This document shows positions 21,632 through 54,660 of a stretch of DNA of 64,000 nt, in pieces. The stretch lies in the IMG/VR virus record IMGVR_UViG_3300037249_001368, positions 32,001 through 96,000 of that record; one strand, written 5' to 3'. The DNA comes from a virus (Duplodnaviria > Caudoviricetes). Numbering within the stretch: the first letter of the stretch is position 1; each line of letters begins with the position of its first letter. Under the pieces are notes generated by a model. That model ran no database searches. It had not been told where the DNA came from and saw only the letters and a list, made by a program, of their open reading frames with translations. A program made the translations under genes and the position numbers.

Positions 21632-21632
21632 C

Positions 21633-21663
21633 TGGCGCGAACGTCCGAAGGATGTGAGTGCCA
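21633..21663 (+). repeat. Stop-codon hairpin family copy A
   Basis: TGGCGC-GAA-CGTCC-GAA-GGATG-TGA-GTGCCA, starting 1 nt after TAA. Confidence 0.9.
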
Positions 21664-21680
21664 ATGTATATACAACAATC

Positions 21681-22175
21681 ATGAAAAGCATATATCTCGA
21701 AAGAACAAAATCTCTCAAAGAAATCATAAACAACATCGGGGTTGGTTTATATTCAACCAAAATTGATGACGTCAACGATGTCTATATCACATCAGAAAAA
21801 TACCCCGATATAATCATAAAACCTGTCGAAGTAGATATCCCGAAACCTGTTCTCATTCCTATATTGAAAGTTGCTATCCCGATATTTCAGAAACTCAAAA
21901 TCAACCTAAAAAATATCGAGACGACTGGTTTAGATTATATAGTGTATAGCGCAGTAGACGAGACTCTTATGGCGGAGTCACTGCTAACAATGCTATGCGC
22001 CCCAGTAGATTCAGAAAAAGACAGCACTTACAACATGGAAAACCCCGTTTGGGACATGTTCATTTATGTCTCCGACGAGTACAAACCATTGGTTGAGGAC
22101 GCGGTTGAAGATATGGATTTGCCAATAGAATTGGATTCGGTTACTGACACTTTACAAATACCCCAAACAGAATGA
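21681..22175 (+). CDS. Hypothetical protein
   Basis: ATG at 21681; the track's GTG start lies inside the hairpin. Confidence 0.65.
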   Translation: MKSIYLERTKSLKEIINNIGVGLYSTKIDDVNDVYITSEKYPDIIIKPVEVDIPKPVLIPILKVAIPIFQKLKINLKNIETTGLDYIVYSAVDETLMAESLLTMLCAPVDSEKDSTYNMENPVWDMFIYVSDEYKPLVEDAVEDMDLPIELDSVTDTLQIPQTE

Positions 22176-22384
22176 ACCCACTTAGAGACATATTCCACCA
22201 AACATTCCAATCACTGAACCTAAAGCCAGGCATGGAAGAAGCGTTATTTGTGCTGTTGGCTGCTTTCATAGCAGTAATCATATCTGCTGTTGGATTGGCT
22301 GTTCTCGATAGTTTGGTGACCAAAATAGAAGATTATTTCAGAAATAGGAAAAGTAATGGCAGCAAACATCAAAACATTGTCTGA
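22172..22384 (+). CDS. Small membrane protein
   Basis: One hydrophobic segment; ATGA overlap. Confidence 0.6.
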   Translation: MNPLRDIFHQTFQSLNLKPGMEEALFVLLAAFIAVIISAVGLAVLDSLVTKIEDYFRNRKSNGSKHQNIV

Positions 22385-22520
22385 TTATAAACTGGCAGAA
22401 GTTTTGTTAGGGCATTTAGAAATTGCTAACATATCAGGGAATTTTGCTGAAGCAGTTAGAGAAGCAGCCAATCGTCTACAAAAACCAAAAACAGGTTACG
22501 TCAATAATCCCGAATTTTGA
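22356..22520 (+). CDS. Small hypothetical protein (54 aa, not in the ORF track)
   Basis: MAANIKTLSDYKLAEVLLGHLE...PEF; fills the intergenic gap. Confidence 0.55.
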   Translation: MAANIKTLSDYKLAEVLLGHLEIANISGNFAEAVREAANRLQKPKTGYVNNPEF

Positions 22521-22538
22521 ACAACAAATCATAAAACA

Positions 22539-23147
22539 ATGAAACAGACCTTACCAATCAACAAAGAAAACAAAATCAAATGTTTTGAGGAAGAACTCGA
22601 ACAGTTCGAGAATCCTTACATTAGGACATTCACGAGAACCTGCATCGGCGAATTACCGGATTATTTCTTCCTGAAGCCATCGACTTCATCAGGAAAGTAT
22701 CATTCACCCGACGAGCGTGGTAATTACGGTTTGATTCTTCACACCAAGCGCGTGTTCCAAACCCTGCTGAAATTATTCCGCTTGGAGGAATTTGCTCAAA
22801 TCTCTGAAGTCAGAAAAGAATACCTGATGTCAGCAGCATTGCTTCACGATGGATTAAAATACGGCTCTGCTGAGAATCAATCAGAACACACAATGTTCGA
22901 ACACCCAATTTTCGCCGCACATTTTGTGAAAGCCATCGGTCAAAGAGAAGGCTATGGCCCTGGTTCAGAAATCATCGCCAATTTCATAATTTCGCACATG
23001 GGGCAATGGAATCAGAGCCCTTACAGTCAAGTCACACTTCCCAAGCCAACTTCCATTGAACAAAAAGCCCTTCACATGGCAGATTACATGGCTTCTAACA
23101 TTCCTACGGTAACGCTTGATGACATTTACCAGTTCATAGAAATCTGA
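22539..23147 (+). CDS. HD-domain phosphohydrolase
   Basis: SSGKYH, GLILHT, AALLHDGLKYG, SHMGQW and HMADY motifs. Confidence 0.85.
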   Translation: MKQTLPINKENKIKCFEEELEQFENPYIRTFTRTCIGELPDYFFLKPSTSSGKYHSPDERGNYGLILHTKRVFQTLLKLFRLEEFAQISEVRKEYLMSAALLHDGLKYGSAENQSEHTMFEHPIFAAHFVKAIGQREGYGPGSEIIANFIISHMGQWNQSPYSQVTLPKPTSIEQKALHMADYMASNIPTVTLDDIYQFIEI

Positions 23148-23150
23148 GCC

Positions 23151-23618
23151 ATGCCACCAGAAAGCAAATATTTTCTGACAGTGATTCGGTCAAGAGACCT
23201 CCTTCGTCAAGAAGCACTGCTTTTGGACCTGTTATCTTTGGTGGAACGGGTTTATGACTCAGAACACAAAGAAACATTCTTGGAAGAACTGAAAAACTCT
23301 CCTGACACACTGGTTGCTTTCATAACGAGTAATTTTTCAGTCATAGGTCTTGGTTGTATCTGTGAGTCGCATGCCTCATTTGGTCTTTATGAGCTGTTTT
23401 GGGGTATGGTTGATGAAGAACACCGAGGCAAAGGTTTGGGCAAAACCTTGGTTGAGAAGAGGATTCAGTTTGTCAGAGAAAGCTGCGTCGGTAAACACAA
23501 ACCAACCGATTTCATCGCCGTCACCGAAAAAACTTGGCACCTTTACAGATGTGGTTTCACGGTCATCAAGAAATTGAAGAGCGGCGAGGGAGGAGAATAC
23601 TTGATGTATAAGTTATGA
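23151..23618 (+). CDS. GNAT-family acetyltransferase
   Basis: VDEEHRGKGLGKTL acetyl-CoA-binding motif and LYRCGF. Confidence 0.8.
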   Translation: MPPESKYFLTVIRSRDLLRQEALLLDLLSLVERVYDSEHKETFLEELKNSPDTLVAFITSNFSVIGLGCICESHASFGLYELFWGMVDEEHRGKGLGKTLVEKRIQFVRESCVGKHKPTDFIAVTEKTWHLYRCGFTVIKKLKSGEGGEYLMYKL

Positions 23619-23746
23619 AAGAATTTCCCAAAGAAACCTACAGACATATCAGGAAAGACTCAAACGGTAAGCGTCACGAAGAAATCCACCATTCGTATGA
23701 TTTCCGTGTCAGAAATGAAAACATAACCGAAGAAACTCCTGTTTAA
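23615..23746 (+). CDS. Small hypothetical protein (43 aa)
   Basis: ATGA overlap with the GNAT gene; MKEFPKETYRHIRK... Confidence 0.4.
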   Translation: MKEFPKETYRHIRKDSNGKRHEEIHHSYDFRVRNENITEETPV

Positions 23747-23784
23747 TAAATAAGCCAATTCATTTACATTAAATTCAGAAAATT

Positions 23785-24189
23785 ATGAAACAGGAATTAA
23801 ATCAAGAAATGAGAGATAAAGTCATCGAGTTCGTGAACTTTATCATGGGTGCCGTGGTCAAGAATCAGGAAATTCATTGGGTCACAAACAACTCTCGCAC
23901 TCACAACGAAACCGACAATCTGAAGTGGAATCTGCTGGACTTCGTCGATACCATTACTGAGCAATACATCGGTGCCGTCGGTCGTGGCATCATCGGCAGT
24001 GGTGACATCAACGCCACCGTCATCGCAGCAAGCACTTGGGACGAACTCACCGACGAAATCAAAGAGCGCACCGTGGCTTTCAAGGATTACCTCAATCAAC
24101 AAAAATCTATCTACGGCGGCATGGTGTCAAGAATCGACGACTTCATCGGTCGCGTCCTTGTTAACATTTACAGAGAGGAGATGGATTAA
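23785..24189 (+). CDS. Ferritin/Dps-like four-helix-bundle protein
   Basis: IHWVT....HNETD......DFVDTITEQYIG pattern. Confidence 0.6.
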   Translation: MKQELNQEMRDKVIEFVNFIMGAVVKNQEIHWVTNNSRTHNETDNLKWNLLDFVDTITEQYIGAVGRGIIGSGDINATVIAASTWDELTDEIKERTVAFKDYLNQQKSIYGGMVSRIDDFIGRVLVNIYREEMD

Positions 24190-24219
24190 CACGAACGTTT
24201 TGTAAAAATGTGAGTGTTG
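24187..24219 (+). repeat. Stop-codon hairpin family copy B
   Basis: TAACAC-GAA-CGTTTT-GTA-AAAATG-TGA-GTGTTG; begins at the TAA stop. Confidence 0.88.
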
Positions 24220-24254
24220 GTTACCACACAACGTAAAATCAAATTTTTACCGAC

Positions 24255-24536
24255 ATGGAAACTTGGAAAGATTTAATCAAGAAATTTGAGGAGAACTTTA
24301 TGAAAGTAAGCAAACTCCTGTACATGGTTATTTGCAACCTTCTAACGGTTTTCTTCTTCAGTGCGACAAAGTCTATGTTTTGGGGTGTGATGATAACATT
24401 CGGGTTACTCCTCCTCAAAGAACTTGTATACGACTATCTGATACGGAAAGGTGAGATGAGCACTGTTGACATCACCGCTGGAACCATCGGTGTCTTCATT
24501 GGATGGCTTTCAACGGTACTGGTCTTAGCCTTTTGA
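24255..24536 (+). CDS. Small membrane protein
   Basis: Three hydrophobic segments; KELVYD...DITAG. Confidence 0.65.
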   Translation: METWKDLIKKFEENFMKVSKLLYMVICNLLTVFFFSATKSMFWGVMITFGLLLLKELVYDYLIRKGEMSTVDITAGTIGVFIGWLSTVLVLAF

Positions 24537-24542
24537 CCAATT

Positions 24543-24576
24543 CCAGCACGAACGTCCGAAAGGATGCGAGTGCTGG
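24543..24576 (+). repeat. Stop-codon hairpin family copy C
   Basis: CCAGCAC-GAA-CGTCC-GAAA-GGATG-CGA-GTGCTGG, 6 nt after TGA. Confidence 0.88.
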
Positions 24577-24863
24577 TCTCTTTTTCGCCATTCTTCGGCA
24601 CTAAGTGCCAGTTGTTAGTAGTTTTTCATTTGTACGTTTTTATTTGTTTATCGTAGTTTTTATTCTGCATCATTAGAGTAGTTTGTTTCAGTTTCATTTT
24701 GTTGTAATTGTTTACCATTCGTTTTTATTGTTCTTTTTCATATCGCTGCTTAGCAGCAATCCTTTCATTTGCATTTGACCAGCCAATTACAGATTGGCTG
24801 ACGTAAGTATTAATTGTTATTTTTTGAGTTAGTACATTGTCAGTCAACAGATGTCACCTTTCC

Positions 24864-24901
24864 AAGAAAAAGCCGTTCCCACAAGGAGCGGCTTTTCTTT
24901 T
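24864..24901. terminator. Intrinsic terminator, possibly bidirectional
   Basis: AAGAAAAAGCCGTTCC-CACAA-GGAGCGGCTTTTCTTTT. Confidence 0.75.
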
Positions 24902-24941
24902 GTCACACCATAATTAATAAATACACCAAAGATAATAAACC

Positions 24942-25766
24942 ATGATTTCCGTAGTTGATGATAATCTTGAATTAAGTCCTGAAGACAGTGAGTTCATTCA
25001 ATATGTTTTGGATGATGTTACGATTGACGGACAGTTACCGTACAAAGTTCCAAAGCGGTCCATTGTGCGTCAGATAGTTGATTCTGCCAAGTTCTTCTAT
25101 AAGAACTACTGGCGTGCCAACATTTCCGACATTTGGGGTCTTATCAAAAAAGAGGACATAAAGAAGTTTCTCACCAACAACGGTTCTACTCCATTCCGTG
25201 AGGTGATTTCATATCACGTCACGCTCCCACCTAAGGTCAGAGTCGTTAGCCGTGTTTTTGACCGTGGAGACCAAATCAACACCGCGAAATATAATGGTGG
25301 CGGCAGTCTCTCAGAATCATTGAGTTGGAATACATCATATTATTCAACCACGAACGGTGGTAATCTTTTGTTTGGCATCGACAGACAGTTATATGTTCAG
25401 CAATCTGTTTGTCAGATAACCAACAACAATGTGTATGAATCATGTTGCTCGACGATGGTGGATTTCCATTTCAACCCTGTGACGAAAGACATGTTCATCA
25501 ATAAAGAATTAAAAACAGACCTCATCATAAATTATAAAGCAGACATCGACCTCAAATATCTTTATCAGGACGACCTCTTCAGAAGATATGTTCTCGCCAA
25601 GACAAGAGCAGTTCTTCGTAGACTCATCGGTTCTCATACCATTGATTTACCTGGCGGAGGTACCCTGAATGTGGACGAGGTTTGCAACACCGACGACATC
25701 GAAAAAGTCGAGGAAATAATCAACGGAGGTAAAGGAATAGGTGACATCATAATTCAACGTCAGTAA
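24942..25766 (+). CDS. Neck protein, T4 gp13-like
   Basis: C-terminal LFRRYVLAK...DLPGGGTLN matches the gp13 LPGG.TLN motif. Confidence 0.7.
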   Translation: MISVVDDNLELSPEDSEFIQYVLDDVTIDGQLPYKVPKRSIVRQIVDSAKFFYKNYWRANISDIWGLIKKEDIKKFLTNNGSTPFREVISYHVTLPPKVRVVSRVFDRGDQINTAKYNGGGSLSESLSWNTSYYSTTNGGNLLFGIDRQLYVQQSVCQITNNNVYESCCSTMVDFHFNPVTKDMFINKELKTDLIINYKADIDLKYLYQDDLFRRYVLAKTRAVLRRLIGSHTIDLPGGGTLNVDEVCNTDDIEKVEEIINGGKGIGDIIIQRQ

Positions 25767-25779
25767 CAGAAACACGGAT

Positions 25780-26127
25780 ATGAACATCATAAAATACCAA
25801 TACGCGACCATCCAAGATGGCTTCATAAAAGTCATCAACAATCCTAAGAAGGAGATTGTTGAATACAACGAACATGATTTTTCTTTGATTGAAACACACC
25901 TCGCAATCATCGGTTGTGATTTCAAGCGTTCTGAGTACCCACACACAGGTTTGTACTTTTTCTCAGTCTGTTGCTGGTTGAACAAGAACAGTGATTACTT
26001 CACCAACATCAGGAAAGATTATTTAGGTATGTTTCACGTCACACTTACTTACAAGGGTGCCGAGATACTTAAAGTCGAGGGCACAGAACTCGAAAAATTG
26101 ATTGGATACGTCATCATAAACATTTGA
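25780..26127 (+). CDS. Hypothetical protein
   Basis: 115 aa ORF. Confidence 0.65.
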   Translation: MNIIKYQYATIQDGFIKVINNPKKEIVEYNEHDFSLIETHLAIIGCDFKRSEYPHTGLYFFSVCCWLNKNSDYFTNIRKDYLGMFHVTLTYKGAEILKVEGTELEKLIGYVIINI

Positions 26128-26131
26128 AGAT

Positions 26132-29100
26132 ATGACCGCGAAAACATCAGCCAACGTCTTAATCGAAAACATGGAGATATTGTATGAGAACATCTACAAT
26201 CTCCTAAAAGCGTTTCAGGAAGCAGCGTCAAACACGCTCGTAAATCCTGTTGTGGTTCTCAAAAACATAGACGGAACCACGAGGGAAGTCACAGTGACAT
26301 CATTCAGACAATTACAACAGGAAATGAACCGTTTGTCTAACAACTTTAATGCTCTGACAAACAGCAACAACCTGTCGTATATTCTCAACCCTGATGGCAC
26401 CGTCTCTCAATACCTCAAAACAACATTCATCAATGCCCAGTATCTTGATTTAGGTAACATTGAAATTGGTGATACATGCAAGGCTGATTTCGCGTCAAAC
26501 ATCCCCGATTTCATGTATCCACTTGTCAAGATACCTGTAACCATTTCATCGGAATTGGTTCATACGGATATCTACTGCCGGTCATTCCAAATCCGTGATG
26601 GATATGACATGATTCCTGAACAGTGTTCGTGGTTGGAACTCCAACAACTCATGAGCAATGGGACCGTGGTAGCTGATGATGAGATTGACCGTGTGCTTTC
26701 ACCTTACAGAGAACAGGTCAGGTATTTTGGGAAGTTCAACATCGAACAAGTTGAGACTACCCAAAATTCTAATATTTGGAATGTTACGCTCAATGATGTT
26801 CATTACACAGGTTTGAATGTCAACGGCAACAACATAGAATTAAAGGTTAATGATGAGTTGGTTACCACATCAGGAAATACCAGATTCTTGATTACTGATA
26901 TATCCATTTTCAACAACTATGTTGTTCTCCGTCGTATCGCTGGTGATGAAGCACCAACAGTTGGTATCAACAAATTGTTATTCAATCAGGTGATTGATGC
27001 CGAAAACTTTGTTGTTGGTATTCCTGTAAAACCGCAGCAAGACTTGGTTGTATTCTTATCCACGCAATCAAAATCAGCGATATCTTACCCGTCAGTTGGT
27101 ATCAAGATTTCGACTACGGATTACGAAGTTGATTACAACGGTCAAACATACACCATTGATGAGTTCTTCTCCAATTATGTCACCAATTTGGGTGAGTACC
27201 TGATGGGAATCGTGGATGAGAGTTCCGTTCCTTATTCACTGGGCATCAAACCAGCTAAACCAGAACTTCTCGGAAGCAACTTTAAGGTGGTGCAAATCAA
27301 CAAGCATCTTCTCAACGCTAAGTCGGTCGCCAACATCAATGAACTCAATGCCGAGAAAGCAAAGATTCAAAACAATATAGATTCCAAGAACAAGAAGATT
27401 GCTGAAATCAAAGCAAACATTCAAAGCAACCACTACAGCACGGTAGCCGAGAAACAAAACAAACAGGAATCTATCGAAAACATCCAAGCAGAGATTGAAA
27501 CCCTGAACGCTAACCTGCTTACAATCACCCGTCGTATTGAGAACGAGTCCATACAGAATAATACCACAGCTGTTAAAGCTAAATATAAGATTGTTGGTTT
27601 CTGGCATTTACAAGATGACTTATATTCTCCGTCAACTGGTATGCAGCATATCGTCAAATATGAAGTCCAGTACAGATATTTGAGTCAGAACTCAGATAAC
27701 ATCGAAAACACAACACTTGATATGGTTGACAATGGTACTCCTGTGAGTGTTACTTTCAGTGCATGGAATGTAGCAGACACAGCAGTACTGAATAAAACCA
27801 AGGCGGTTGACGGTTCAATCATTTGGGAGAATCCTCAAATCAACAGCACTGATGATTTGAATATCAATCAGTGCATGATTACAATCAACGAAAATGAGTC
27901 GGTTGAAATCAGAGTAAGAGCCATCTCAGAAGCAGGTTACCCAATCGCTCCTCTGAAATCAGAATGGAGCGATATCATTAGAGTTAACTTCCCTGATGAG
28001 TTCAAACAAAACAATATCAATACCATTGTTGAGAGTAACCAACTGGATTTGCGCAAGGCTGAAATGAACCAAATCTTGAAAGAGTACGGTGTCATCGAAC
28101 ACGTCCAAGACGAAATCCTCGAAAACGACGCCAAGTATTTCCACAAGGCAGCGAGCATTGCTTCAGGTTTCTACACTCAAGAAATGAAGAACATTCCTCT
28201 TGACACATTCCTGAAGAACTTACGTTCTGACATAGATGCGTTGCAAAACTCTCATGCAAATCCATTGACGGTTTCGGTGATTGACCCAGACAACAACGAG
28301 TTTGAAATGAGTAATGACCAAACTCTGAATGTCTTCGTTGGTAATTTCTCCGAGCAGTATGATGCCAAAGACTACAACAACTTTGGTAAAATCATCACCA
28401 AGAAACTTTACATCAAACTAAAAAACAATAACCAAGTCCCGATTGACATCAAATCGTTGCAGCCGAACGGAATAACCGAACTTGACGATTTATACAAGTA
28501 TGTACCAGTCGTGACCAACACAGGCTTCCATCAAGAAACTGGTCAAATCATTTATTTCAGGAAACTGAATCTGACCATGAACAGTTACTTTGAACTATAC
28601 AAGCCTTACGAAGTTCCCGAGTTGACTTTACCGCTTTATGGCAACATCAGTCAAAGATTGAATGTAGCTTTCCTCCTGAATGACGTCATAACTCAAGGTT
28701 ACGTAGATGTGAATGTTGTGAGCTTCGCAACCGCAACAGCCATGAACTTGGCGGCTCCCGAAGGAAATATCACCTACGATAATCTGTACAGAATAATGCA
28801 GTATTCTGATTTCATCACAGGTGAAAAACAATTACTCCTGAATGATGATTTATCATACAGATTCAGCAGACTTGGTTTCAGTAAGAGCGACGAATATGGT
28901 GCAGGTATCTACACTTGTGGTTCAATGCTTTACCCAATCTTCGGTGACCTGACCCGCTTCAAAGTTCGTGGCGAATCATCCACATCAGTTATGGTTCTCG
29001 AAGCAGGAAAAGAAATCCTGTTACCAATCATATTTGAATACAGGATGCTTGACACCTTCGGTCGTCCGTCAGGAACCGTCAACCCAACCGACATTGAATA

Positions 29101-29179
29101 CCGCAAGACACTTGGTGTAGCCCTGAACATCGGAAACAAACCGTTTAACTTCGACCTAAGCGTCTATGTGAAGTATTAG
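26132..29179 (+). CDS. Large structural protein with coiled coil and FN3-like segment
   Basis: 1015 aa; heptad region followed by YEVQYRY...EIRVRAISEAG...SEWS. Confidence 0.65.
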   Translation: MTAKTSANVLIENMEILYENIYNLLKAFQEAASNTLVNPVVVLKNIDGTTREVTVTSFRQLQQEMNRLSNNFNALTNSNNLSYILNPDGTVSQYLKTTFINAQYLDLGNIEIGDTCKADFASNIPDFMYPLVKIPVTISSELVHTDIYCRSFQIRDGYDMIPEQCSWLELQQLMSNGTVVADDEIDRVLSPYREQVRYFGKFNIEQVETTQNSNIWNVTLNDVHYTGLNVNGNNIELKVNDELVTTSGNTRFLITDISIFNNYVVLRRIAGDEAPTVGINKLLFNQVIDAENFVVGIPVKPQQDLVVFLSTQSKSAISYPSVGIKISTTDYEVDYNGQTYTIDEFFSNYVTNLGEYLMGIVDESSVPYSLGIKPAKPELLGSNFKVVQINKHLLNAKSVANINELNAEKAKIQNNIDSKNKKIAEIKANIQSNHYSTVAEKQNKQESIENIQAEIETLNANLLTITRRIENESIQNNTTAVKAKYKIVGFWHLQDDLYSPSTGMQHIVKYEVQYRYLSQNSDNIENTTLDMVDNGTPVSVTFSAWNVADTAVLNKTKAVDGSIIWENPQINSTDDLNINQCMITINENESVEIRVRAISEAGYPIAPLKSEWSDIIRVNFPDEFKQNNINTIVESNQLDLRKAEMNQILKEYGVIEHVQDEILENDAKYFHKAASIASGFYTQEMKNIPLDTFLKNLRSDIDALQNSHANPLTVSVIDPDNNEFEMSNDQTLNVFVGNFSEQYDAKDYNNFGKIITKKLYIKLKNNNQVPIDIKSLQPNGITELDDLYKYVPVVTNTGFHQETGQIIYFRKLNLTMNSYFELYKPYEVPELTLPLYGNISQRLNVAFLLNDVITQGYVDVNVVSFATATAMNLAAPEGNITYDNLYRIMQYSDFITGEKQLLLNDDLSYRFSRLGFSKSDEYGAGIYTCGSMLYPIFGDLTRFKVRGESSTSVMVLEAGKEILLPIIFEYRMLDTFGRPSGTVNPTDIEYRKTLGVALNIGNKPFNFDLSVYVKY

Positions 29180-29207
29180 CGCGAACGTCCGAAGGATGTG
29201 AGCGCTA
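29177..29207 (+). repeat. Stop-codon hairpin family copy D
   Basis: TAGCGC-GAA-CGTCC-GAA-GGATG-TGA-GCGCTA; begins at the TAG stop. Confidence 0.92.
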
Positions 29208-29221
29208 TGCGTTAGCAGACT

Positions 29222-29230
29222 TAATACATA
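29222..29230 (+). promoter_or_regulatory. Putative late promoter TAATA(A/C)ATA (representative copy)
   Basis: Same 9-mer at 1245, 14689, 14704, 18340, 23744, 24915, 44979, 47349, 51925, 54666, 55229, 57411 and 58502, each upstream of a gene start. Resembles T4 TATAAATA. Confidence 0.7.
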
Positions 29231-29249
29231 GGTTACAAATACGTAATCT

Positions 29250-32200
29250 ATGGAAGGAATACAAAAATTTTCCCAAGGCAATCAGATATTTTCTGAAATA
29301 TACGACTCGAAGACTGGTGTATTAAACAAGGCTATACACCAGCTTTCGGGGCGTTATAAGGTTATTGTGTCATCCCGTAGCAACGGTTATCAGTTATACT
29401 TGGCTGATTACACTGGTTATAAGGTTGAACTGGACGTTACCAAGGATTTCATGTCACAGGTTTCGGAATTTCTGAAAACACCTACAACCATCGACGAAAA
29501 GAAAACACTGTACGGAGGCTACTCCGACAACAAGGCGTATTCATGGCATATCCCCATGTATATTTCGTCAGCTGACACTAATCTCCCCGAATTTTTCCTG
29601 ATTTTCAAAACTGACAACAAACGCAGTTCTGACATATACCCCGAAAGCCTTCCAAAGATTTTCAATTATTCAACGCCAATCGACGTTATTGATTTGAATA
29701 AGGTTTTCGTCACCAACATTTTCAAGACGATTCAGGAACTCAAATCTTCCGAAATGTATCTCGATTGTCCATTACAACTGTATTGGAGTGGTGACGACAA
29801 ACTGACATCAATCATTTTACATGGTTTTGATTATGACAAAGGGTGTGTTACCAAGAAGGAAATCAACATCAAGGAATACGTCCAAAACCGTATCAATAAA
29901 ACAAGGGAACAGGCGGTTGATAGTGATGGTTTGCCTGATGACACGTTCAAAAGCATTGAGAAAATCATCCGCAAGTTCCAAAACACTGTAAACAACACTG
30001 ATAAAACCGACGGAAGGGTGAATCAAAACGGCGTGGTGACTGCTAACAGAAACGCTCAACCGAATTACTCACTCACACTTGCAAGTCACCAATCAGGCGG
30101 CATCGCTCCTTCATCAGAAACAACCGACGCCTTTGACATAGACGAGAGAGTTGAATCAGTGCCAGAAGAGAACATTTCAGAGTATGACGACTTTGCTTTT
30201 TTCAATAATCTAATCCTTGAATTATTCGAGGAGAACCACCTGATTTTCCCAAGATTTATCAACATCGAGTTTGAATTTGATTATGAACGTCCTGCTGATT
30301 ATGTTTGTGATTTTCAAAACTTTTTCGGTTACTTCGCCAACATCACCGAAGATAAATTAGAACTCAGCAAACAGCTTAAGATTTACCGTCACAAACCGAA
30401 TACCGTTCCGATTGAGTTCAATGAGATAGACCCATTGAACCCTGCATCATACACCATTTCTCAGCGAAAAGAATTGGTAAATGTTTTGCATGTTCAAGAC
30501 ATTAAGGAACAAGATTATTTGGCTATTGTGAAGCCAAGTAGAATCACCACCAACGACAAGATTCTGATAATTTCTGATGACGAGGAAATCATTGAGTTTT
30601 ATATCGAGACTCAGAACATCAAACCAACTCGTTACGAAACCATGATTAACATCGGAAACAGGATTCAGTACCTGACGAATGATTACATCACGGTGGAAAC
30701 GACTCAGGACCTCCAATGGAGATTTAAGTGCTGCTCAGAATTTCATTTGAAGTTCATGACTGGAACACACCCCAGCCGTAATTATACCATCATTCAGGAA
30801 GCAGAAAACATAAATCTTAATGACGTTCAGTTGATTGATACGGGTGACTTGGAAAACCTGCCAAGAGACCTAACAATCAATGATGAAGAATACACCATTG
30901 TTAAAAGATTCGTGTATGACGGTCATCAGATATTAAGACTAGACCTTAATCCCCAATTACGATATCTGACAGAAGCCAAGGTTTATGATTGGTTCAGTGA
31001 GGAGATGTATTTCTTCTATCCAATCCCGTTCCTGAATAAGTTCAATGACATTCAAACACGAGAGCTTTTTAACGCAGCACTTTACGCTGAAGAAATCAAA
31101 GACGTTGTGCCAGTTTATGTTTCCACGGTACCATCACCATATCAGTACCGCAAACCCGAACAGATTGTCATTGATAATAATTCAGAATGTGTGTTTGTTT
31201 CTGGAAGCACCAATTTTGTGAACATTCACACACTGAATTATGATGACATTTTTGGTCGCAAGAATGGTTGTTTGGAGAAGTACCCATCTTATTTCCTAAT
31301 TAAAGGTCAGTGCCCTGAATATTTGATGTATGACTTCCGCTCATACAGATATTTTGAGAAAGAACCACAACTTCGTTCCACCCTAAAACGCATCAACGCC
31401 AACACTTGTGAATGTGTTTTCTTGGGAACAAAGTTCTCAACAGACATCAAATACGAAGGTTATAAACTTTGTGCCTACGTGGACCTCAAAGCCGAAGCAG
31501 AGCACGAGGGAGAGTATTACTGCATCATTGACAATGCCAAAAAACACATAGACATAGTCATAAACAAGCCGTTGGAGTTTACTGGAATCAACGCTATAGA
31601 TTTGTCGATATTCAAGAACATCAACAGCAGTTTTGTTTTCAGTGAAGAGCATCACGAAGTTTTCTCACAAACAGGGTTTAAGTTCTGTGACGAAATCACG
31701 AACCAAGAACTTATGTTGTCAGGATACCAATCGCGAATCGTCAACAACAAATTCCTCGTCCTGAGAAATAGAATGTATCAGGATACTTTCATGACCATGT
31801 ATGAGGAAGGAGGTGACATTCTTGGTCATTACTACGCCATACTACCAAAATCAGAAGCAGATGATACCGTTGGTTTGGTGTTTACAATCAAGTTCATAAA
31901 CCCATCCCAAATCCAAGACAATTCGTTTTTGTGTGATGATATCGAACTAAGAATCATGTACACGGTTTTGGAAGATTGGGAACCGACGGAAATCTTCCAC
32001 CAATATGATGATTCAGGTTATTACGAAACCTATGAGCAGTTCCGTATCAACATTGATAATTCGAGGAAGTTACACAGAAAGTACATTCACGAACTACCTG
32101 ACTTCCCCGAGCCAATCATGCTCCGTCGTTATCTGAAAGAAATAAGCAATCCCGTGGACAGAGCAATGGCCACCCAAGTCATATCTCTGAAATCGCAATA

Positions 32201-33146
32201 TTTCAGCTTTACATACAAACCGACTGGCGAAAAAGAGTTGATGACATTCCCTCAATTCTATGACCAGACCCTCGTAAGCGACAGAAATCAGTTCGAGCAA
32301 CTCATAAATCCTCATTACAACGGCACATCATACGACACTGAGTTCAGTTCCATTCTTTCAAACAGCAACAACAATTATGACATAACGCTGTTTGACACAA
32401 ACAAAATCTGGCAGATTGTGGCTGTCATGTGTAATGATATGACGTCACCTCACATGACACTCCATCAGTTACAGACATACCTCAGCGGTTTCAACTTTGA
32501 GTTTTTCGCAAATTGGTTAAACAGCAACCTGTTACACATTTACGGGACAGAGGACAGCATTAAAATCAGGGTTATTGATATGGATGTTAACCTTGACCGT
32601 GATAACAGAAGAATGTGGAGGTATTCAACATTCTACAAAAACTATCTGACCGAGTACCAAAACATGTTACAATTCCAAAACATCAGGTATTCAGACAGAT
32701 TGGTCCTCTTCACAATCTTCAGCAAAAATTATGGCTATTACCTCGACGAGACGTACCAAGAATCATTGAAATATGACGTCGGTGCAACAGGCATTTGGGG
32801 CGAGGTTCATAACTTGGTTTCGTCATTATTCACTGGCGAAGATTTGTCAGTGAAAGTTGAGTTTAATCAACAGTTGAATGTTGCCAAAGAACTCGTTGGT
32901 CGTTTGTATTACGACAAAATGATAATAAATAACGAGAATAATAGATACTTAAAGAATCAGTCCATAAATGTACGACAATACATCAAGGAAATTTACCCAA
33001 AATACATCTTGGATAATTTCTACGACGTGGAGTCAGTTTTGGTCGACGGTTCAAGAGTGGACTTTGAATACAACAAATATGATTACAGCCTTAAACTCTA
33101 CACAGAGGAAGGAACTGAAGTCATGATAAATCTTGTCAGAATCTGA
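29250..33146 (+). CDS. Large hypothetical (probably structural) protein
   Basis: 1298 aa ORF behind a TAATACATA motif. Confidence 0.7.
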   Translation: MEGIQKFSQGNQIFSEIYDSKTGVLNKAIHQLSGRYKVIVSSRSNGYQLYLADYTGYKVELDVTKDFMSQVSEFLKTPTTIDEKKTLYGGYSDNKAYSWHIPMYISSADTNLPEFFLIFKTDNKRSSDIYPESLPKIFNYSTPIDVIDLNKVFVTNIFKTIQELKSSEMYLDCPLQLYWSGDDKLTSIILHGFDYDKGCVTKKEINIKEYVQNRINKTREQAVDSDGLPDDTFKSIEKIIRKFQNTVNNTDKTDGRVNQNGVVTANRNAQPNYSLTLASHQSGGIAPSSETTDAFDIDERVESVPEENISEYDDFAFFNNLILELFEENHLIFPRFINIEFEFDYERPADYVCDFQNFFGYFANITEDKLELSKQLKIYRHKPNTVPIEFNEIDPLNPASYTISQRKELVNVLHVQDIKEQDYLAIVKPSRITTNDKILIISDDEEIIEFYIETQNIKPTRYETMINIGNRIQYLTNDYITVETTQDLQWRFKCCSEFHLKFMTGTHPSRNYTIIQEAENINLNDVQLIDTGDLENLPRDLTINDEEYTIVKRFVYDGHQILRLDLNPQLRYLTEAKVYDWFSEEMYFFYPIPFLNKFNDIQTRELFNAALYAEEIKDVVPVYVSTVPSPYQYRKPEQIVIDNNSECVFVSGSTNFVNIHTLNYDDIFGRKNGCLEKYPSYFLIKGQCPEYLMYDFRSYRYFEKEPQLRSTLKRINANTCECVFLGTKFSTDIKYEGYKLCAYVDLKAEAEHEGEYYCIIDNAKKHIDIVINKPLEFTGINAIDLSIFKNINSSFVFSEEHHEVFSQTGFKFCDEITNQELMLSGYQSRIVNNKFLVLRNRMYQDTFMTMYEEGGDILGHYYAILPKSEADDTVGLVFTIKFINPSQIQDNSFLCDDIELRIMYTVLEDWEPTEIFHQYDDSGYYETYEQFRINIDNSRKLHRKYIHELPDFPEPIMLRRYLKEISNPVDRAMATQVISLKSQYFSFTYKPTGEKELMTFPQFYDQTLVSDRNQFEQLINPHYNGTSYDTEFSSILSNSNNNYDITLFDTNKIWQIVAVMCNDMTSPHMTLHQLQTYLSGFNFEFFANWLNSNLLHIYGTEDSIKIRVIDMDVNLDRDNRRMWRYSTFYKNYLTEYQNMLQFQNIRYSDRLVLFTIFSKNYGYYLDETYQESLKYDVGATGIWGEVHNLVSSLFTGEDLSVKVEFNQQLNVAKELVGRLYYDKMIINNENNRYLKNQSINVRQYIKEIYPKYILDNFYDVESVLVDGSRVDFEYNKYDYSLKLYTEEGTEVMINLVRI

Positions 33147-33175
33147 GCACGAACGTCCGAAGGATGTGAGTGGTC
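33144..33175 (+). repeat. Stop-codon hairpin family copy E
   Basis: TGAGCAC-GAA-CGTCC-GAA-GGATG-TGA-GTGGTC; overlaps the TGA stop. Confidence 0.9.
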
Positions 33176-33189
33176 GTAAAATCAGGAGC

Positions 33190-33531
33190 ATGAAAAGAAT
33201 ACCCGTAAATGCAGGAGAGTTAAACAACCTCCAAGGAAAGATAAACATGTATCTAAACTCAATCACCGAACGAGGCGCGGCTTTATCAGGTCAGGCTCAT
33301 TCGGATGGTTGTGTTTCAATCATAATTTCGGTATCAGGTATCCGTGGCGTCATCCAACGCACATTGGTTTTAATCAAAACCGAACAAACCGTCACCAAAG
33401 ACGGAATCACCGGTGCTGTTTGGCATGGTTACATGAACGGTGTCGGTTACGAACTCGCCACCCTGACCGAACTCAAAAACCTCATCGGTATCCAAACGAG
33501 AATGATGCGTAGCCTTGCTTTACAGCGTTGA
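33190..33531 (+). CDS. Hypothetical protein
   Basis: ATG at 33190 within ORF 33133..33531. Confidence 0.65.
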   Translation: MKRIPVNAGELNNLQGKINMYLNSITERGAALSGQAHSDGCVSIIISVSGIRGVIQRTLVLIKTEQTVTKDGITGAVWHGYMNGVGYELATLTELKNLIGIQTRMMRSLALQR

Positions 33532-33556
33532 CACATTCTACTAAAATCATTAAGAG

Positions 33557-36736: not shown

Positions 36737-37043
36737 CCAACCTGAACCCCAAATTTCCTGTTCTTTGCCTTATAATTTCAAATATATAAAAAAGAGCCAA
36801 GTCGCCCTTATATAACTTATTGATTATCAAGTAGTTATGAATTTAACACTATTTTCAAGGAGTTAAATGGATTTAGCGTTTGTAACTAATTGATTATCAA
36901 GCGTCTACGAAACGCTGATTTGACATGGGCTGATGCTTTTTAATGAAAATCCTATATAAGTAGTATACCGTTCGTATCGCCCTTTCATCAATCCGCGTTG
37001 AAAATAGCTCAAAATTCGGACTAATTCTTAAGTTCACCGATAA

Positions 37044-38813: not shown

Positions 38814-38840
38814 CACGAACATCTGAAAAATGTGTTGCTA
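38811..38840 (+). repeat. Stop-codon hairpin family copy F (degenerate)
   Basis: TAGCAC-GAA-CATCT-GAA-AAATG-TG-TTGCTA; begins at the TAG stop. Confidence 0.75.
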
Positions 38841-38888
38841 GTAACAAGGTGATTACAATTCCAAATAATTCTGAAAAGCTGATTTAAC

Positions 38889-44224: not shown

Positions 44225-44836
44225 ATGGCTACTGCTGAATCAATATTCCCGCACGTCGTACAGAGCACTGCAGCGGTGAACAGGTATGAACCTGTTGTAC
44301 CGTCCAACTTCAACGCTCAGTTCATTCTCGAGGGTTATTTGAAGGAGAAGTTAGGCGACTACTCGTTCCTGAAGGAATACGTGAAAGCCGTCAACGGTCT
44401 GTTCGTGGAGTACGCCGGCAACACCATCGAAGCCGGTTACAAGACCACGAGATTCAGATACGACTCCAACGATAAGCAGACCTACTACGAAATCGAGGTC
44501 CAGTTCTGGAACTTCTTGGACAACGAAAGTAAACAGTATGTCTACAACGCCCTCGTTGCTTGGTCCCGCATTAAGTATAATCCGCTGACTGGCGAAAAGA
44601 CCATGAAACGCGATTACGCTGATGCCTCGATTGTCGCCGAGAAATTCAACCGTGACGGTACCATCTTCTGGAGACGTATCGCTCATAATGTCTTCCCGTC
44701 CAGTGACATCGGTGACCAAGGCGCTGATTACGCTTCGCACGACCCCGTTGAGTTGACCATCACTTTCAACGCCGACTATGTTTCAGACGTCACCAACGAC
44801 CCACGTCTTGTTGACAGTCAGACTGGAACATTCTAA
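44225..44836 (+). CDS. Tail tube protein (gp19-like)
   Basis: YEPV...F, W....YNPLTG....KRDYA, FNRDG.I.R, VFP...D and LTITFNADY; strong codon bias. Confidence 0.8.
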   Translation: MATAESIFPHVVQSTAAVNRYEPVVPSNFNAQFILEGYLKEKLGDYSFLKEYVKAVNGLFVEYAGNTIEAGYKTTRFRYDSNDKQTYYEIEVQFWNFLDNESKQYVYNALVAWSRIKYNPLTGEKTMKRDYADASIVAEKFNRDGTIFWRRIAHNVFPSSDIGDQGADYASHDPVELTITFNADYVSDVTNDPRLVDSQTGTF

Positions 44837-44865
44837 CACGAACATTTGAAAAATGTGAGTGTTAG
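44833..44865 (+). repeat. Stop-codon hairpin family copy G
   Basis: CTAACAC-GAA-CATTT-GAA-AAATG-TGA-GTGTTAG; contains the TAA stop. Confidence 0.92.
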
Positions 44866-44932
44866 GTCATAACACAGATAACGCGTACATTTTCAAGGGC
44901 TTTCGCTGGCCTCAACATTTCAATTCTTTGGC

Positions 44933-44966
44933 GAAAACACCCGTCGTGAGATGGGTGTTTTCTTTT
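44933..44966 (+). terminator. Intrinsic terminator
   Basis: GAAAACACCCGTC-GTGA-GATGGGTGTTTTC-TTTT. Confidence 0.85.
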
Positions 44967-47333: not shown

Positions 47334-47360
47334 AAATCTTTCCTCATCTAATACATATTC

Positions 47361-51896: not shown

Positions 51897-51957
51897 ACCT
51901 GTCAGAAAAAATAAATTATCAGGCTAATAAATATTTCAATCATAGTTACAATTAGAG

Positions 51958-52323
51958 ATGGTACCGTTATTCGAGGAAGATAATTTTAGTGTTAAGATTA
52001 AGAAAATCAGAGACGTCTATGCAAAAAAGCGCGACGCCCTGAAAGAATCAAAGGAAAAGAAACTTGAGAATCTTCGCAATCAACGTGACCAGAAACTTGA
52101 GAACACTCACGGTCACCTCGAAAAAGCAAAAATCCGTTCAGACTTTGCTAAGAAGAGTGACCAGTTGAATTACAAAACAGAGGTCGAGATTGACAAGTTC
52201 AGAAAACAGCGGGACGAGGCGATTAAGAAAATCAAAGAACAACGTGAGAAACTGAAAGTTGTCAACAAAACCACAAAAACCGTCAAAGAAAAATCTACAA
52301 CCAAATCTAACACAACCAGATAG
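51958..52323 (+). CDS. Basic coiled-coil protein
   Basis: Lys/Arg-rich 121 aa with N-terminal LFEED. Confidence 0.7.
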   Translation: MVPLFEEDNFSVKIKKIRDVYAKKRDALKESKEKKLENLRNQRDQKLENTHGHLEKAKIRSDFAKKSDQLNYKTEVEIDKFRKQRDEAIKKIKEQREKLKVVNKTTKTVKEKSTTKSNTTR

Positions 52324-52351
52324 CACGAACATCCGAAGGATGTGAGTGGTA
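52321..52351 (+). repeat. Stop-codon hairpin family copy H
   Basis: TAGCAC-GAA-CATCC-GAA-GGATG-TGA-GTGGTA; begins at the TAG stop. Confidence 0.9.
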
Positions 52352-52366
52352 AAAATTTTATTTTCC

Positions 52367-52849
52367 ATGACTGAACTCACAGCAACACAGTGGTACATAC
52401 TTTACGGAGCAGGAATCCTGACTTTCATCGTTTCAATCCTTGACGACTTTCGCGTCAGGAGATTTACATGGTTTGAATGGATTCAGTATACTCTATTCAC
52501 GCTTATAGCAATCACCGCGGGTATCTTTTCATGCAGGGCACTTGAAACCAGTTTTGCATGGATGGTGATTGTATGTCTTGCTTGTGGTTTCTTGGGTGGT
52601 TCGGTTCTTATCAAAATCGACTTACGTAAAAACGAACTGTCAGACCAAGTCGTTGATTCTCTGAAAGATAAAATGAAATCTTGGTCAAGTTCATATATAG
52701 CAGGTCAAATCAACGGTGGTAACATTATACCCGAGACCTCGTTAGAATACGACGAACACATCAAGAGTCATATCGTGATTGATAACTCAAATACAATCGT
52801 TGACCCGAACCAATCTGATTATAATCCGTTTGACGAAATGTGTAAATAG
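52367..52849 (+). CDS. Membrane protein, holin-like
   Basis: Three N-terminal TM segments and a hydrophilic tail; ATG at 52367. Confidence 0.5.
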   Translation: MTELTATQWYILYGAGILTFIVSILDDFRVRRFTWFEWIQYTLFTLIAITAGIFSCRALETSFAWMVIVCLACGFLGGSVLIKIDLRKNELSDQVVDSLKDKMKSWSSSYIAGQINGGNIIPETSLEYDEHIKSHIVIDNSNTIVDPNQSDYNPFDEMCK

Positions 52850-52870
52850 CACGAATAAGTACGCTGAATC

Positions 52871-54634
52871 ATGAAGCTAAACACAGGACTAAACATATTG
52901 TATGGCAAGAACCTCGACGCCAAGATTTCTAAGAAAATCTTGTACGCGAACACCAATGGTAAGTTACAGAACCAAAAAGTTCTGAATAAAGCCGTTGGTA
53001 TTCCGAGCGACCCGTTGTATTTGAACAACAACGATATGTTCTATGCCAGCTACAATCCTGACATCAGATACAGAAACTATTTCCAGTTCTCGTCATTAGC
53101 AAACATTGAGTATCGTAATGCGTTACTCCTGTTTGCTGAAAACAAGAAAATCAAAAAGGCCGTGAAAATCATGGCTGATGAAATGGTTGTTGTTGATAGT
53201 GATGCTCAGCGTTATCCTGTTCAGCCAGATATCAACATCACCAAACTGGAAACAGATAAGCAGAAAGTTGGTACCGCAATCGTTGATTATCTTGACAATG
53301 TCTTTTATCCGAAACTTTGGAGAATGTACGACTTCGACAGTTTCGGTGATGGTGGCATAATTGATATGTTGAAAGAGTTCCTTATCACAGGAAAACTGGC
53401 ATGGGAAATAATTTATGACAGTATCAAGAACCCCAAAGACATTATTGGTTTGCAACCGTTAGACCCAACCACGTTACAGAAATACAAGGTTGGTGATGAC
53501 ATATATTACGTTCAGAGAACAGTGTTTGATGGACGTGAAAGAATCCTCCACGAAAACCAAGTAATCTTGGTTGAGTGGAATAAGTATGACTTCGGGTATG
53601 TTTCTTATGTTGACGGTCTACGACTGTCATACAACATAATGAACTCCATGAACACCTCCAAAGCGTTATGGTTTGCAGCAAAATCCCAAGTGAGGATGCA
53701 CATCAGATTAGCGCTTGGTGACGTGTCAAGGGACGAAGCCGAACAAAGACTTTCTGAAGCCGCTCAGCGCTATACGAACAACTTTAAGTTCAGCGAGGAT
53801 GGTGTGGTTCTGTTTAACAACCAACCAAACAATTCAGGCTACAGAGAGTTCTTTACTGGTGAAACATCTGTATCAGGTCATCCTGAAATCGAGGAAGTAA
53901 ACGCCAACGGTCCCGACTTAACCGAAACAGATTCATTATCCTATTGGGAGAAACTCTATTGGGAAGATACGGGAATACCGTTTGACAGAATCGACCCTAA
54001 CAACAGTGATAACTGGGGGTTCCTCGACGTAGAATCACTCAAGAAAACCGAAATCATTTTCGCCAAGGACGTAGAAGCCATTCGACGTATGTTGAATGAC
54101 ATTTGGATGAAACCAATCATCATTCAACTAACACTGAAAGAGGTAGAAATTGGAATTGACCTCAGCCTGTTGGATTCAATCGAACTGAAATGGGCATCGT
54201 ACAACCAGTACGAAAAGATGGCAGACTTAGGAATCCTTGAAAAGAAAGTAGGTATCGCACAGAACATCAAGGACTTTGGTACCACCATGAACGCCGCCGA
54301 TAAGGAAGTCCCGTTCTTCTCGGTCAACTGGCTCACCCGAAACATTTTGGGTTACGACGAAGCCACAATCAAACTCATCAAAGAAGCCAGACGTCTCGAA
54401 TACGAAGAACTTGGTTTCGACGAGAACGGTTGTCCTAAGAAGGAATTTGTTGACGCGAGCATGGGTTCGTTAGGCGACATGGGATTGGGTGACATGGGTG
54501 GCGGTAGTGGTGATTTGGATGACCTGTACGGTGGTTCCCCAGAAGACGAAGAACCAGAAAATTCATCCGATGACGAGGAACATTTCGTCGAAGATGAAGA
54601 AGCAATTTCTGATTCGGATGATTCACAGCTTTGA
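52871..54634 (+). CDS. Portal protein, T4 gp20-like
   Basis: FLITGKLAWEI, LQPLDPT, LSYWEKLYWEDTGIPFDRI and acidic C-terminus; upstream of protease and capsid genes. Confidence 0.82.
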   Translation: MKLNTGLNILYGKNLDAKISKKILYANTNGKLQNQKVLNKAVGIPSDPLYLNNNDMFYASYNPDIRYRNYFQFSSLANIEYRNALLLFAENKKIKKAVKIMADEMVVVDSDAQRYPVQPDINITKLETDKQKVGTAIVDYLDNVFYPKLWRMYDFDSFGDGGIIDMLKEFLITGKLAWEIIYDSIKNPKDIIGLQPLDPTTLQKYKVGDDIYYVQRTVFDGRERILHENQVILVEWNKYDFGYVSYVDGLRLSYNIMNSMNTSKALWFAAKSQVRMHIRLALGDVSRDEAEQRLSEAAQRYTNNFKFSEDGVVLFNNQPNNSGYREFFTGETSVSGHPEIEEVNANGPDLTETDSLSYWEKLYWEDTGIPFDRIDPNNSDNWGFLDVESLKKTEIIFAKDVEAIRRMLNDIWMKPIIIQLTLKEVEIGIDLSLLDSIELKWASYNQYEKMADLGILEKKVGIAQNIKDFGTTMNAADKEVPFFSVNWLTRNILGYDEATIKLIKEARRLEYEELGFDENGCPKKEFVDASMGSLGDMGLGDMGGGSGDLDDLYGGSPEDEEPENSSDDEEHFVEDEEAISDSDDSQL

Positions 54635-54660
54635 CACAAACATCTAAAATGTGAGTGTCA
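54632..54660 (+). repeat. Stop-codon hairpin family copy I (degenerate)
   Basis: TGACAC-AAA-CATCTAAAATG-TGA-GTGTCA; begins at the TGA stop. Confidence 0.8.

Follow-up and report, generated by a model that had tools for sequence, protein, structure and literature searches.

The DNA analysed here, a 64,000-nt stretch (the window) comprising bases 32001-96000 of the 178,153-bp IMG/VR virus record IMGVR_UViG_3300037249_001368, carries a dispersed family of small hairpins, many of which contain the stop codon of the gene in front of them. Coordinates marked "genome" refer to the whole record, all others to the window. To judge from its gene content, the phage is a large T4-like myovirus. It has a tail sheath and a T4-type portal protein (PF07230), its syntenic relatives have an S77 prohead protease, a Gp23-like capsid protein, gp13 and neck proteins, and its genome encodes a T4-like replication and recombination set made up of PolB, topoisomerase II, Rad50/Mre11-like proteins, a clamp loader and a 5'-3' exonuclease. 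The public sequencing runs that contain its DNA are cattle gut and rumen metagenomes, from roughly 15 studies. Genes are tightly packed, with a median intergenic gap of 22 nt, and 171 of the 195 open reading frames (ORFs) of the genome (88% of the genes) lie on the + strand.

Structure and position of the hairpin copies

The original prediction, made from the letters of the window, listed nine full copies of the hairpin, all on the + strand, and three half copies, and took them for a selected element coupled to translation termination. All nine are present with the layout described for them, and so are the half copies at 14656, 52847 and 8932, the one at 52847 being weak. The list was nevertheless incomplete. 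A covariance model built from 13 aligned copies and scanned over the 178-kb genome gave 13 copies at E <= 1.5e-7 and two more at ~5e-4, all on the + strand; among them are a tenth copy in the window (19316-19343) and three strong and two weak copies outside it. The word C[AG]CGAAC[AG]T of the 5' arm occurs 11 times on the + strand of the genome and never on the - strand, the word ATGTGAG[TC]G of the 3' arm 12 times and once, respectively. The copies are the following (bit scores are those of the covariance model):

19316-19343, + strand: tenth window copy, within ORF 19238-20314; 37.0 bits; folds; outer stem AATCGC/GTGATT; encodes N-R-E-R-F-N-V-S-D, with a sense codon at the usual stop position
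21633-21663, + strand: copy A; 48.1 bits; folds at -18.5 kcal/mol (z -5.2); begins 1 nt past the TAA stop of a RuvC-like resolvase gene (20930-21631, PHROG annotation); ATG of the next gene at 21681, 17 nt beyond the stem
24184-24222, + strand: copy B; 44.6 bits; folds; loop GTA; outer stem includes the TAA stop (24187-24189) of gene 23785-24189
24543-24576, + strand: copy C; 44.9 bits; folds at -20.1 kcal/mol; GAAA loop and one A.C mismatch; begins 6 nt past the TGA stop of gene 24255-24536
29177-29207, + strand: copy D; 49.7 bits; folds; stem base is the TAG stop of a 1015-aa gene (26132-29179), paired with CTA; the promoter-like motif TAATACATAG lies 3' of it at 29222
33144-33176, + strand: copy E; 51.5 bits; folds; outer stem holds the TGA stop of a 1298-aa gene (29250-33146), 1 nt farther out than elsewhere
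38811-38840, + strand: copy F, degenerate, lacking the 3' GA; 37.2 bits; weak fold (z -1.0); stem base is the TAG stop of the neck-protein gene 37044-38813
44832-44866, + strand: copy G; 51.7 bits; folds; stem holds the TAA stop of gene 44225-44836, paired with TTA; a canonical terminator follows at 44933-44962
52321-52351, + strand: copy H; 52.8 bits, the top score; stem base is the TAG stop of gene 51958-52323; next ATG 15 nt past the stem
54631-54661, + strand: copy I; 41.1 bits; 5' GA reads AA; stem holds the TGA stop of the portal gene 52871-54634, paired with TCA
genome 29010, 126072 and 161204, + strand: strong copies outside the window
genome 25806 and 154496, + strand: weaker copies
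14656-14671, + strand: 3' half copy with loop, 3' inner arm, GA and 3' outer arm; the TGTATAT that follows is common to copy A and the genome 161204 copy
8932-8949, + strand: 3' half copy; its 18 nt (3' arm plus CTCGGTATAA) are common to the full copy at genome 29010
52847-52856, + strand: 5' half copy, TAG-CAC-GAA-T, at the stop of gene 52346-52849; weak (9-10 nt)

The repeat, 31-39 nt in length, folds into a 6-bp outer stem, a 2x2 internal loop of tandem G.A, a 6-bp inner stem and a terminal loop that is mostly GAA. Each of the nine copies listed earlier folds on its own into this two-stem hairpin with a GA/GA internal loop, and RNA fold z-scores are between -3.2 and -5.3 in most copies, with weaker values for F (-1.0) and the 19316 copy (-2.0). 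In the 13-copy alignment 93.4% of the pair cells are paired and double-sided changes are found at 6 of 12 pairs; none of 500 shuffles attained these values, and with a sliding partner 26-49% of cells were paired. When copies from relatives are added (20 rows) the figures are 96.5% and 7 of 12 pairs. The covariation claimed for the stems is thus borne out: the distal stems vary between copies yet remain paired, and G.U pairs are present. Near-invariance of GA/GA, also claimed, holds for most copies but not for F, in which the 3' GA is missing, nor for I, in which the 5' GA is replaced by AA; a fully paired variant with GA opposite TC occurs at genome 159045 and at L107:5081-5120, in one of the relatives introduced below. 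Given the GA/TC variants, the G.A loop is not obligatory. As DNA the + strand also folds better than the - strand (copy A: -6.8 versus -2.5 kcal/mol), a difference that G.T pairs and a G.A loop would be expected to produce.

In B, D, F, G, H and I the stop codon of the upstream gene forms the base of the stem, 6 nt 5' of GAAC, in six copies as had been predicted, and the 3' arm follows the stop that is used, as the TAG/CTA pairing in D, TAA/TTA in G and TGA/TCA in I show. One exact register in 6 of 15 copies has a probability of ~6e-9 under uniform intergenic placement, and the observation therefore stands. In copy E the stop is 7 nt 5' of GAAC. The register differs for genome 126072 and 161204, where the TGA of ca-TGA-ac is the stop. 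The upstream stop is contained in the element or at most 16 nt away in 12 of the 15 copies. The coupling is not general, since A, C and the copies at genome 25806 and 154496 have no stop inside, and it is not peculiar to this family either, as the ends of bacterial repetitive extragenic palindromic (REP) elements are known to supply stops (PMC3733652). Ten of the 13 strong copies lie within a 35-kb structural block (P ~1.5e-5), a conserved module with portal, neck and sheath-side genes. The strand bias that had been predicted is complete, all copies being co-oriented on the + strand, but so are 171 of the 195 ORFs.

The hairpins are not plain terminators. No copy was flagged as an intrinsic terminator and none has a U-tract tail; moreover, behind A, E, H and the copy at genome 29010 the ATG of the next gene is only 13-17 nt away, which argues against termination there. 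A U-tract near copy C alone had been noted. A T-rich tract does follow copy C, but it is already present at this site in relative L107, which has no hairpin there, and by this comparison it is older than hairpin C. Ordinary terminators had been said to occur separately, one of them after copy G, and this was found to be the case for 44933-44962 as well as for 24868-24896. These two canonical intrinsic terminators have G+C-rich stems of 12-13 bp with T-runs, are kept in relatives and are separate from the hairpin family.

Two copies are translated within genes. The ORF that contains the 19316 copy, 19238-20314, aligns from residue 1 with L107:870-1769, which has no such codons, and in L107 the homologue of window gene 18859-19263 gains 12 codons from an in-frame copy at L107:828-863. 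Gene 19238-20314 begins 26 nt inside the end of gene 18859-19263 (overlap 19238-19263), and both genes at this overlap bear a nearby family copy in one strain or another.

Presence and absence of copies in relatives and strains

Syntenic DNA of relatives was found via the portal protein and the 1298-aa protein and was searched with the covariance model with filters off. The relatives are:

L018: 83% portal amino-acid identity; no family copy in 22 kb
L025: same 90% portal cluster as the window; no family copy in the searched stretch
L026: neighbouring 90% portal cluster; no family copy in the searched stretch
L024: same 90% portal cluster; the sole copy is the portal-stop copy (I)
L108 and L109: 98% amino-acid and 94-97% nucleotide identity; without D and E
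L107: 87% amino-acid identity; no copy at A, C, E and F; another allele of copy B; two copies in tandem at D; a further copy where the window site is empty

Although the neighbouring genes are 75-98% identical in the relatives compared, most copies are missing at the same junctions, and the junction alignments show clean differences of 27-57 nt that start at or just past the stop. Compared with L107, copy A is a 48-nt insertion at a junction where stop and start are 1 nt apart in the relative, copy C an insertion of 38 nt, and copy F one of 27 nt immediately after TAG. At the copy B junction L107 has a different allele, in which the stop is TGA, the arm is TCA to match it, and GA/GA gives way to Watson-Crick GA/TC. 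Copy D is missing in L108 and L109 and present as a tandem duplicate in L107, where the two copies (L107:9871-9947) follow the 1015-aa gene in units that include its last sense codon and stop (TAT-TAA, TAT-TAG); this arrangement suggests slippage or unequal recombination at the hairpin. Copy E is missing in L108 and L107, in which stop and next start overlap as ATGA. Copies G and H are found in the window only among the relatives compared; G is missing in L025 and L018, and H in L024, L025 and L018, where the gene pair again overlaps as ATGA. For copy I there is an orthologous and better-paired copy at L024:11765-11802, missing in L025, L018 and L026. The hairpin allele hence separates gene pairs that overlap (E, H) or are 1 nt apart (A) in relatives. 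The site of the half copy at 52847 reads TGA-CGA-T in relatives.

The same polymorphism is seen between strains. Contigs from other cattle samples skip four copies, with joints at 19300-19349 for the 19316 copy (run X2), 21632-21681 for A (run X3), 24193-24231 for B (run X2) and 29179-29222 for D (run X2). For many junctions, alleles with and without the repeat occur side by side in public cattle-gut data. In run X3, a contig also links an A-like hairpin to the sequence 3' of the half copy at 14656 (loose end 21670). No copy was detected in whole 160-kb records of relatives at 38-42% identity.

At junction D the window allele matches L107 over the last codons, and not the nearest relative L108. 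This suggests that junction alleles move between strains, in which case an insertion cannot be dated by a site that is empty at 98% identity. At junction E (33120-33195, compared with L108:5670-5700 and L107:13880-13905) 5 of 15 nt in the final four codons are unlike those of a relative whose identity elsewhere is 94-97%; in the empty allele the gene end contains GCACGAA(C), which is the 5' arm of the repeat. Microhomology between empty sites and element was seen for this GCACGAA(C) at E (p 0.02-0.04), for AACATCC at H (p 0.05) and at G (p 0.11), and was not significant at the others. We take it as a lead rather than a result.

The original proposal of a selected device coupled to termination is not supported, since copies are missing in close relatives and strains, absent at 38-42% identity and in two cases intragenic and in frame. 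What stands of the original interpretation is a real, strand-specific structure that is not a terminator, and the REP-like element that had been named as an alternative is the reading that presence and absence and the intragenic copies favour.

A probable phage-borne repeat of the REP/RPE kind and its alternatives

We consider it reasonably probable that the hairpins are one small imperfect-palindrome repeat of the kind of the REPs and of the Rickettsia palindromic elements (RPEs), which has multiplied within one cattle-rumen T4-like phage lineage. By its sequence the family would be a new, untagged and phage-borne member of this kind. The original remark that the element was not recognised as a described family holds for the sequence, which was found in no searched collection, but not for the kind, which is known. 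Rfam gave no match across the window at gathering score, and megablast of a 7-kb piece against deposited phages found no match. When IMG/VR, JGI metagenomes and 185,579 species genomes were scanned for the exact core and for gapped patterns, only single hits per contig came back; these reach at most 32 bits and consist of the core without an outer stem, compared with 37-53 bits in true copies, and are taken as chance matches for this reason. One of them, in a metagenome-assembled genome of a rumen Prevotellaceae, was rejected as a core-only match inside a 941-aa ORF. Close relatives were obtained neither with the sheath protein from metagenome contigs nor with the portal protein from IMG/VR.

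Bacterial REPs lie within 20 bp of the upstream ORF end, and their termini often supply a TAG stop; they have G-T pairs in their stems, subfamilies with complementary stem changes, one family with unpaired GA residues in the stem, and some intragenic copies (PMC3733652). The link to stop codons is therefore an already described property and not new. Like REPs, which are imperfect palindromes of 20-40 nt in multiple dispersed copies, the phage repeats (31-39 nt) are mostly extragenic, near the 3' end of the upstream ORF and co-oriented with transcription. Unlike REPs, they reside in a phage genome, number only ~15, form no head-to-head or tail-to-tail dimers and use all three stops, each paired with its complement. 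The family is outside the tagged REP super-families because the two features that define these, the GTAG/CGTC tag and a REP-associated tyrosine transposase (RAYT), are missing: no unpaired GTAG or CGTC is found at an end, the TAG being paired; in each of the six TAG copies this codon is preceded by A or T and never by G; CGTC occurs only within the inner stem of some copies; and no RAYT (PF01797) was seen in the phage. The latter result comes from three Pfam scans of ~181 ORFs (E<=1e-4; the families listed are the best 25 of 26 and 25 of 28 in two of the scans), which revealed no PF01797, transposase, HUH/Y1, TnpB, integrase or recombinase domain among the matches listed. A dedicated transposase is also absent from the CGTC REPs (PMC3733652; Di Nocera, De Gregorio & Rocco 2013), with which RPE-4 and RPE-6 have been equated (PMC3733652). 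With RPEs the phage family shares in-frame insertion in coding genes whose homologues lack the insert, in the two cases given above; it differs in that much less is added (24-36 nt), in the small number of intragenic cases, in the phage host and in its unrelated sequence.

How could such a repeat spread? Gain and loss would take place at the DNA level, and the likely route is the T4-type recombination and replication of the phage itself, by short-homology recombination, template switching or slippage, because no dedicated transposase is encoded; whole junction alleles would be exchanged between strains as well. Hints of an enzyme-free spread are the 3' extensions shared by A, 14656 and genome 161204 and by genome 29010 and 8932, the half copies, the tandem pair of L107 and the weak microhomology at empty sites. 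With genes a median of 22 nt apart, surviving insertions would be those that leave both neighbouring genes intact, and such a filter would leave copies that sit exactly at a stop or in frame in a tolerant gene end. The first triplet of the element (TAG, TAA or TGA) would then act as the stop. Since this triplet is fixed, only changes of the 3' arm can restore pairing, which would account for the match between arm and stop; such changes may be favoured because they stabilise the stem, or may come from palindrome-templated correction, a process shown to create and maintain hairpins (PMC8794818).

The repeat would be transcribed within polycistronic late mRNAs and would fold there, and its effect on RNA is most likely that of a REP, a barrier to 3'-exonucleases and an insulator between cistrons. 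The probable role of the hairpins in late operons is to shape mRNA ends or to insulate cistrons; such protection or insulation is plausible, though dispensable. T4 mRNAs also contain very stable small intercistronic hairpins that are thought to set mRNA ends and half-lives, as are REP-type 3' stabilisers. The T4 hairpins are unrelated sequences defined by their loop, for example UUCG, in contrast to the one family with insertion polymorphism described here. The RNA contigs of metatranscriptome X22 over 19100-39000 are short, and none spans a hairpin.

Several points weigh against a repeat of the REP/RPE kind. The GA/GA loop is retained in most copies, as are G.U pairs; a purely selfish repeat would not need them, and their retention points to selection on a specific structure, perhaps for a specific binding partner. 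No mobilising enzyme was found and no insertion signature, such as a target duplication or fixed ends, is evident; the microhomology between empty sites and element is weak; the copy number (~15) is low for a REP family, whose defining tags are missing; and recombination between strains, as the junction sequences indicate, blurs the direction and date of gains and losses.

A possible, although not very likely, alternative is that the hairpin is a selected RNA site that is read by a specific phage or host protein and was spread by selection at late-gene junctions, be it as an endonuclease processing site, as a 3' or 5' stabiliser with a dedicated binder or as a modulator of termination and re-initiation at the stop. 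The retention of the tandem G.A in its Py-GA-Pu context, of the GAA/GNA loop and of the flanking CAC/GTG while other pairs covary would be expected of such a site, and the fold is specific to the + strand, with G.U pairs. It would also fit the one exact stop register in six copies, the concentration of copies in the late structural block and their position inside polycistronic units, 13-17 nt 5' of the next ATG. On the other hand, each copy is dispensable, as close relatives and strains that occur together lack it at the corresponding junction; none is present in relatives that share the gene order; two copies are translated within genes; Watson-Crick pairs replace GA/GA in variants; and the matches listed for the Pfam-scanned ORFs include no candidate for a protein that binds or cuts RNA and is confined to genomes with hairpins. 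That the element acts instead as a single-stranded DNA hairpin, extruded on the + strand while the DNA is replicated, recombined or packaged, as a site of priming, nicking, recombination or REP/RAYT-type transposition with a RAYT possibly encoded by the host, we regard as unlikely. As DNA the + strand folds well, and better than the - strand does. DNA also gives very stable GNA triloops with a C-G closing pair and very stable tandem sheared G.A in Py-GA-Pu context, the indel behaviour is typical of DNA repeats, and the half copies and tandem pair suggest breakage or slippage at the palindrome. However, the phage has no HUH/Y1 transposase, TnpB or integrase among the matches listed, the GTAG/CGTC tag is missing and no copies were found in the 185,579 species genomes. 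Every copy is on one strand, as this alternative would have it, but the bias does not discriminate because the + strand is the sense strand for 88% of the genes.

Repeated stem-loops are known from T4-like phages in the form of PeSLs (promoter-early stem-loops), which consist of a sigma70-like early promoter and a terminator stem-loop and lie in hyperplastic regions flanking ORFans (PMC2839356, PMC4122927); their spread was ascribed to phage recombination on short homology, with no dedicated recombinase known (PMC2839356). PeSL stem-loops likewise are intergenic, start near upstream stops, have G-T pairs (PMC2839356) and are linked to indels between close phages. It is nevertheless very unlikely that the hairpins are part of such composite cassettes, in which they would terminate the transcripts arriving from upstream, form part of a phage promoter, or both. 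The phage is T4-like, a promoter-like motif, TAATA[AC]ATA, follows D, G and I, and TATAA(T)-like hexamers follow three 3' arms; most copies, however, have no promoter-like motif behind them and most TAATA[AC]ATA motifs no hairpin, and there is no space for a promoter in A, E and H. A sigma70-type promoter scan stayed at shuffle level, and no promoter consistently adjoins the copies. The unit contains neither promoter nor terminator tail: a U-tract is lacking, no copy was flagged as a terminator and true terminators are nearby. The copies are in the conserved late structural module and not in hyperplastic regions flanking ORFans, and the indel is the hairpin itself, in contrast to whole genes between PeSL cassettes.

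A role in programmed termination pausing is scarcely probable. Ribosomes that pause at the hairpin stops would be diverted to trans-translation by a transfer-messenger RNA (tmRNA) of the phage, by which particular late proteins would be tagged or down-tuned. The basis for this is the genome-encoded tmRNA and the C that follows the stop in six copies, in which the stop is locked into a stable stem. A stop codon followed by C is a weak termination context in E. coli, and REPs near stops reportedly cause ribosome stalling and tmRNA tagging. A milder reading would be that a palindromic repeat with no transposase has been caught in a T4-like phage as it spreads by template switching. If the tmRNA reading were true, it would be a new viral use of tmRNA. 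Mimicry of a host CRISPR repeat, by which solitary repeat units or an RNA anti-CRISPR would soak up Cas proteins, is exceedingly improbable. Solitary repeat units do resemble the family in size, hairpin shape and multi-copy state in phage, but neither an array nor a matching repeat was found in the 185,579 species genomes with the exact core pattern, and the placement of copies inside and flush with genes is left unexplained.

Five further candidates were rejected. A TA target duplication, as left by a mariner/IS630-like MITE, would fit the TAG and TAA copies because TA is self-complementary, but fails for the TGA, TGG, CAG, GAG and AAT stem bases. A link to the diversity-generating retroelement (DGR) of the window, of the kind in which a hairpin follows the variable region, was dismissed as no family copy is near the reverse transcriptase gene region. 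A kink-turn needs a 3-nt bulge adjoining the tandem G.A, and the internal loop here is symmetric, 2x2, with GA over GA, in every copy. N4-type promoters are template-strand hairpins with a 3-nt loop that are used by a giant virion RNA polymerase (vRNAP); in the phage family the stable fold is on the coding and not on the template strand, the longest window ORF has 1511 aa and no genome ORF is near ~3500 aa. Integron attC sites have paired R/L boxes with extrahelical bases and require an integron integrase; no integrase or recombinase domain was seen among the matches listed, and the element, at 31-39 nt, is below the size of attC.

Small repeats and hairpins have been found in other viruses. 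Cluster O mycobacteriophages have a 17-bp dyad-symmetric repeat in ~30 copies per phage genome, with a function given as unknown (PMC4351075, PMC6439249). That repeat is fixed in sequence at 17 bp and conserved in the cluster, unlike a two-stem hairpin that has covarying stems and is polymorphic between strains. The s2m element is a small conserved, apparently mobile RNA hairpin in the 3' UTRs of several RNA virus families (PMC3653767); it differs by its occurrence in animal RNA viruses, a single copy per genome and an unrelated structure.

The origin and spread of transposase-free palindromic repeats were stated as open for the CGTC REPs (PMC3733652). With the REP/RPE-like repeat, a compact phage genome of 178 kb carries what looks, from its polymorphism, like a young repeat family, and so provides a small system, present in nature, for counting how transposase-free repeats are gained and lost and which targets they choose. 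It also calls for caution in annotation: covariation and a stop register give the impression of a dedicated regulator, but can arise from a repeat that is filtered by selection in a packed genome.

Promoter-like motifs, predicted RNA genes and gene-content variation

The motif TAATA[AC]ATA occurs genome-wide 21 times on the + strand and twice on the - strand, mostly 12-65 nt 5' of start codons; examples in the window are at 29222, 44979, 54666, 14689, 14704 and 24915. It recurs at the same junctions in relatives and is probably the late promoter of this phage group. The late promoter of T4, for comparison, is TATAAATA.

A different promoter-like sequence is associated with the 3' arm GTGAGTGCT, which is followed three times, within 0-4 nt, by TATAA(T/A), a -10-like hexamer: at 8932-8955 in the window, at genome 29020-29045 (L111) and at genome about 25765-25785 (L111). 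Candidate explanations are a promoter that uses the arm, or a flank that was copied together with the repeat.

Outside the window, ARAGORN predicted a permuted tmRNA with the tag peptide GNNYEMRAAA (G000:C1:9908-10239; L110:9908-10239) and also called genes for tRNA-Phe, tRNA-Ala, tRNA-Lys and tRNA-Met.

Between the portal gene and the next gene, three relatives have an extra gene of 191-199 aa (L024:11826-12425, L018:11771-12346 and L026:11783-12382). It is missing in the window and in L025, and this variation in gene content adjoins hairpin I.

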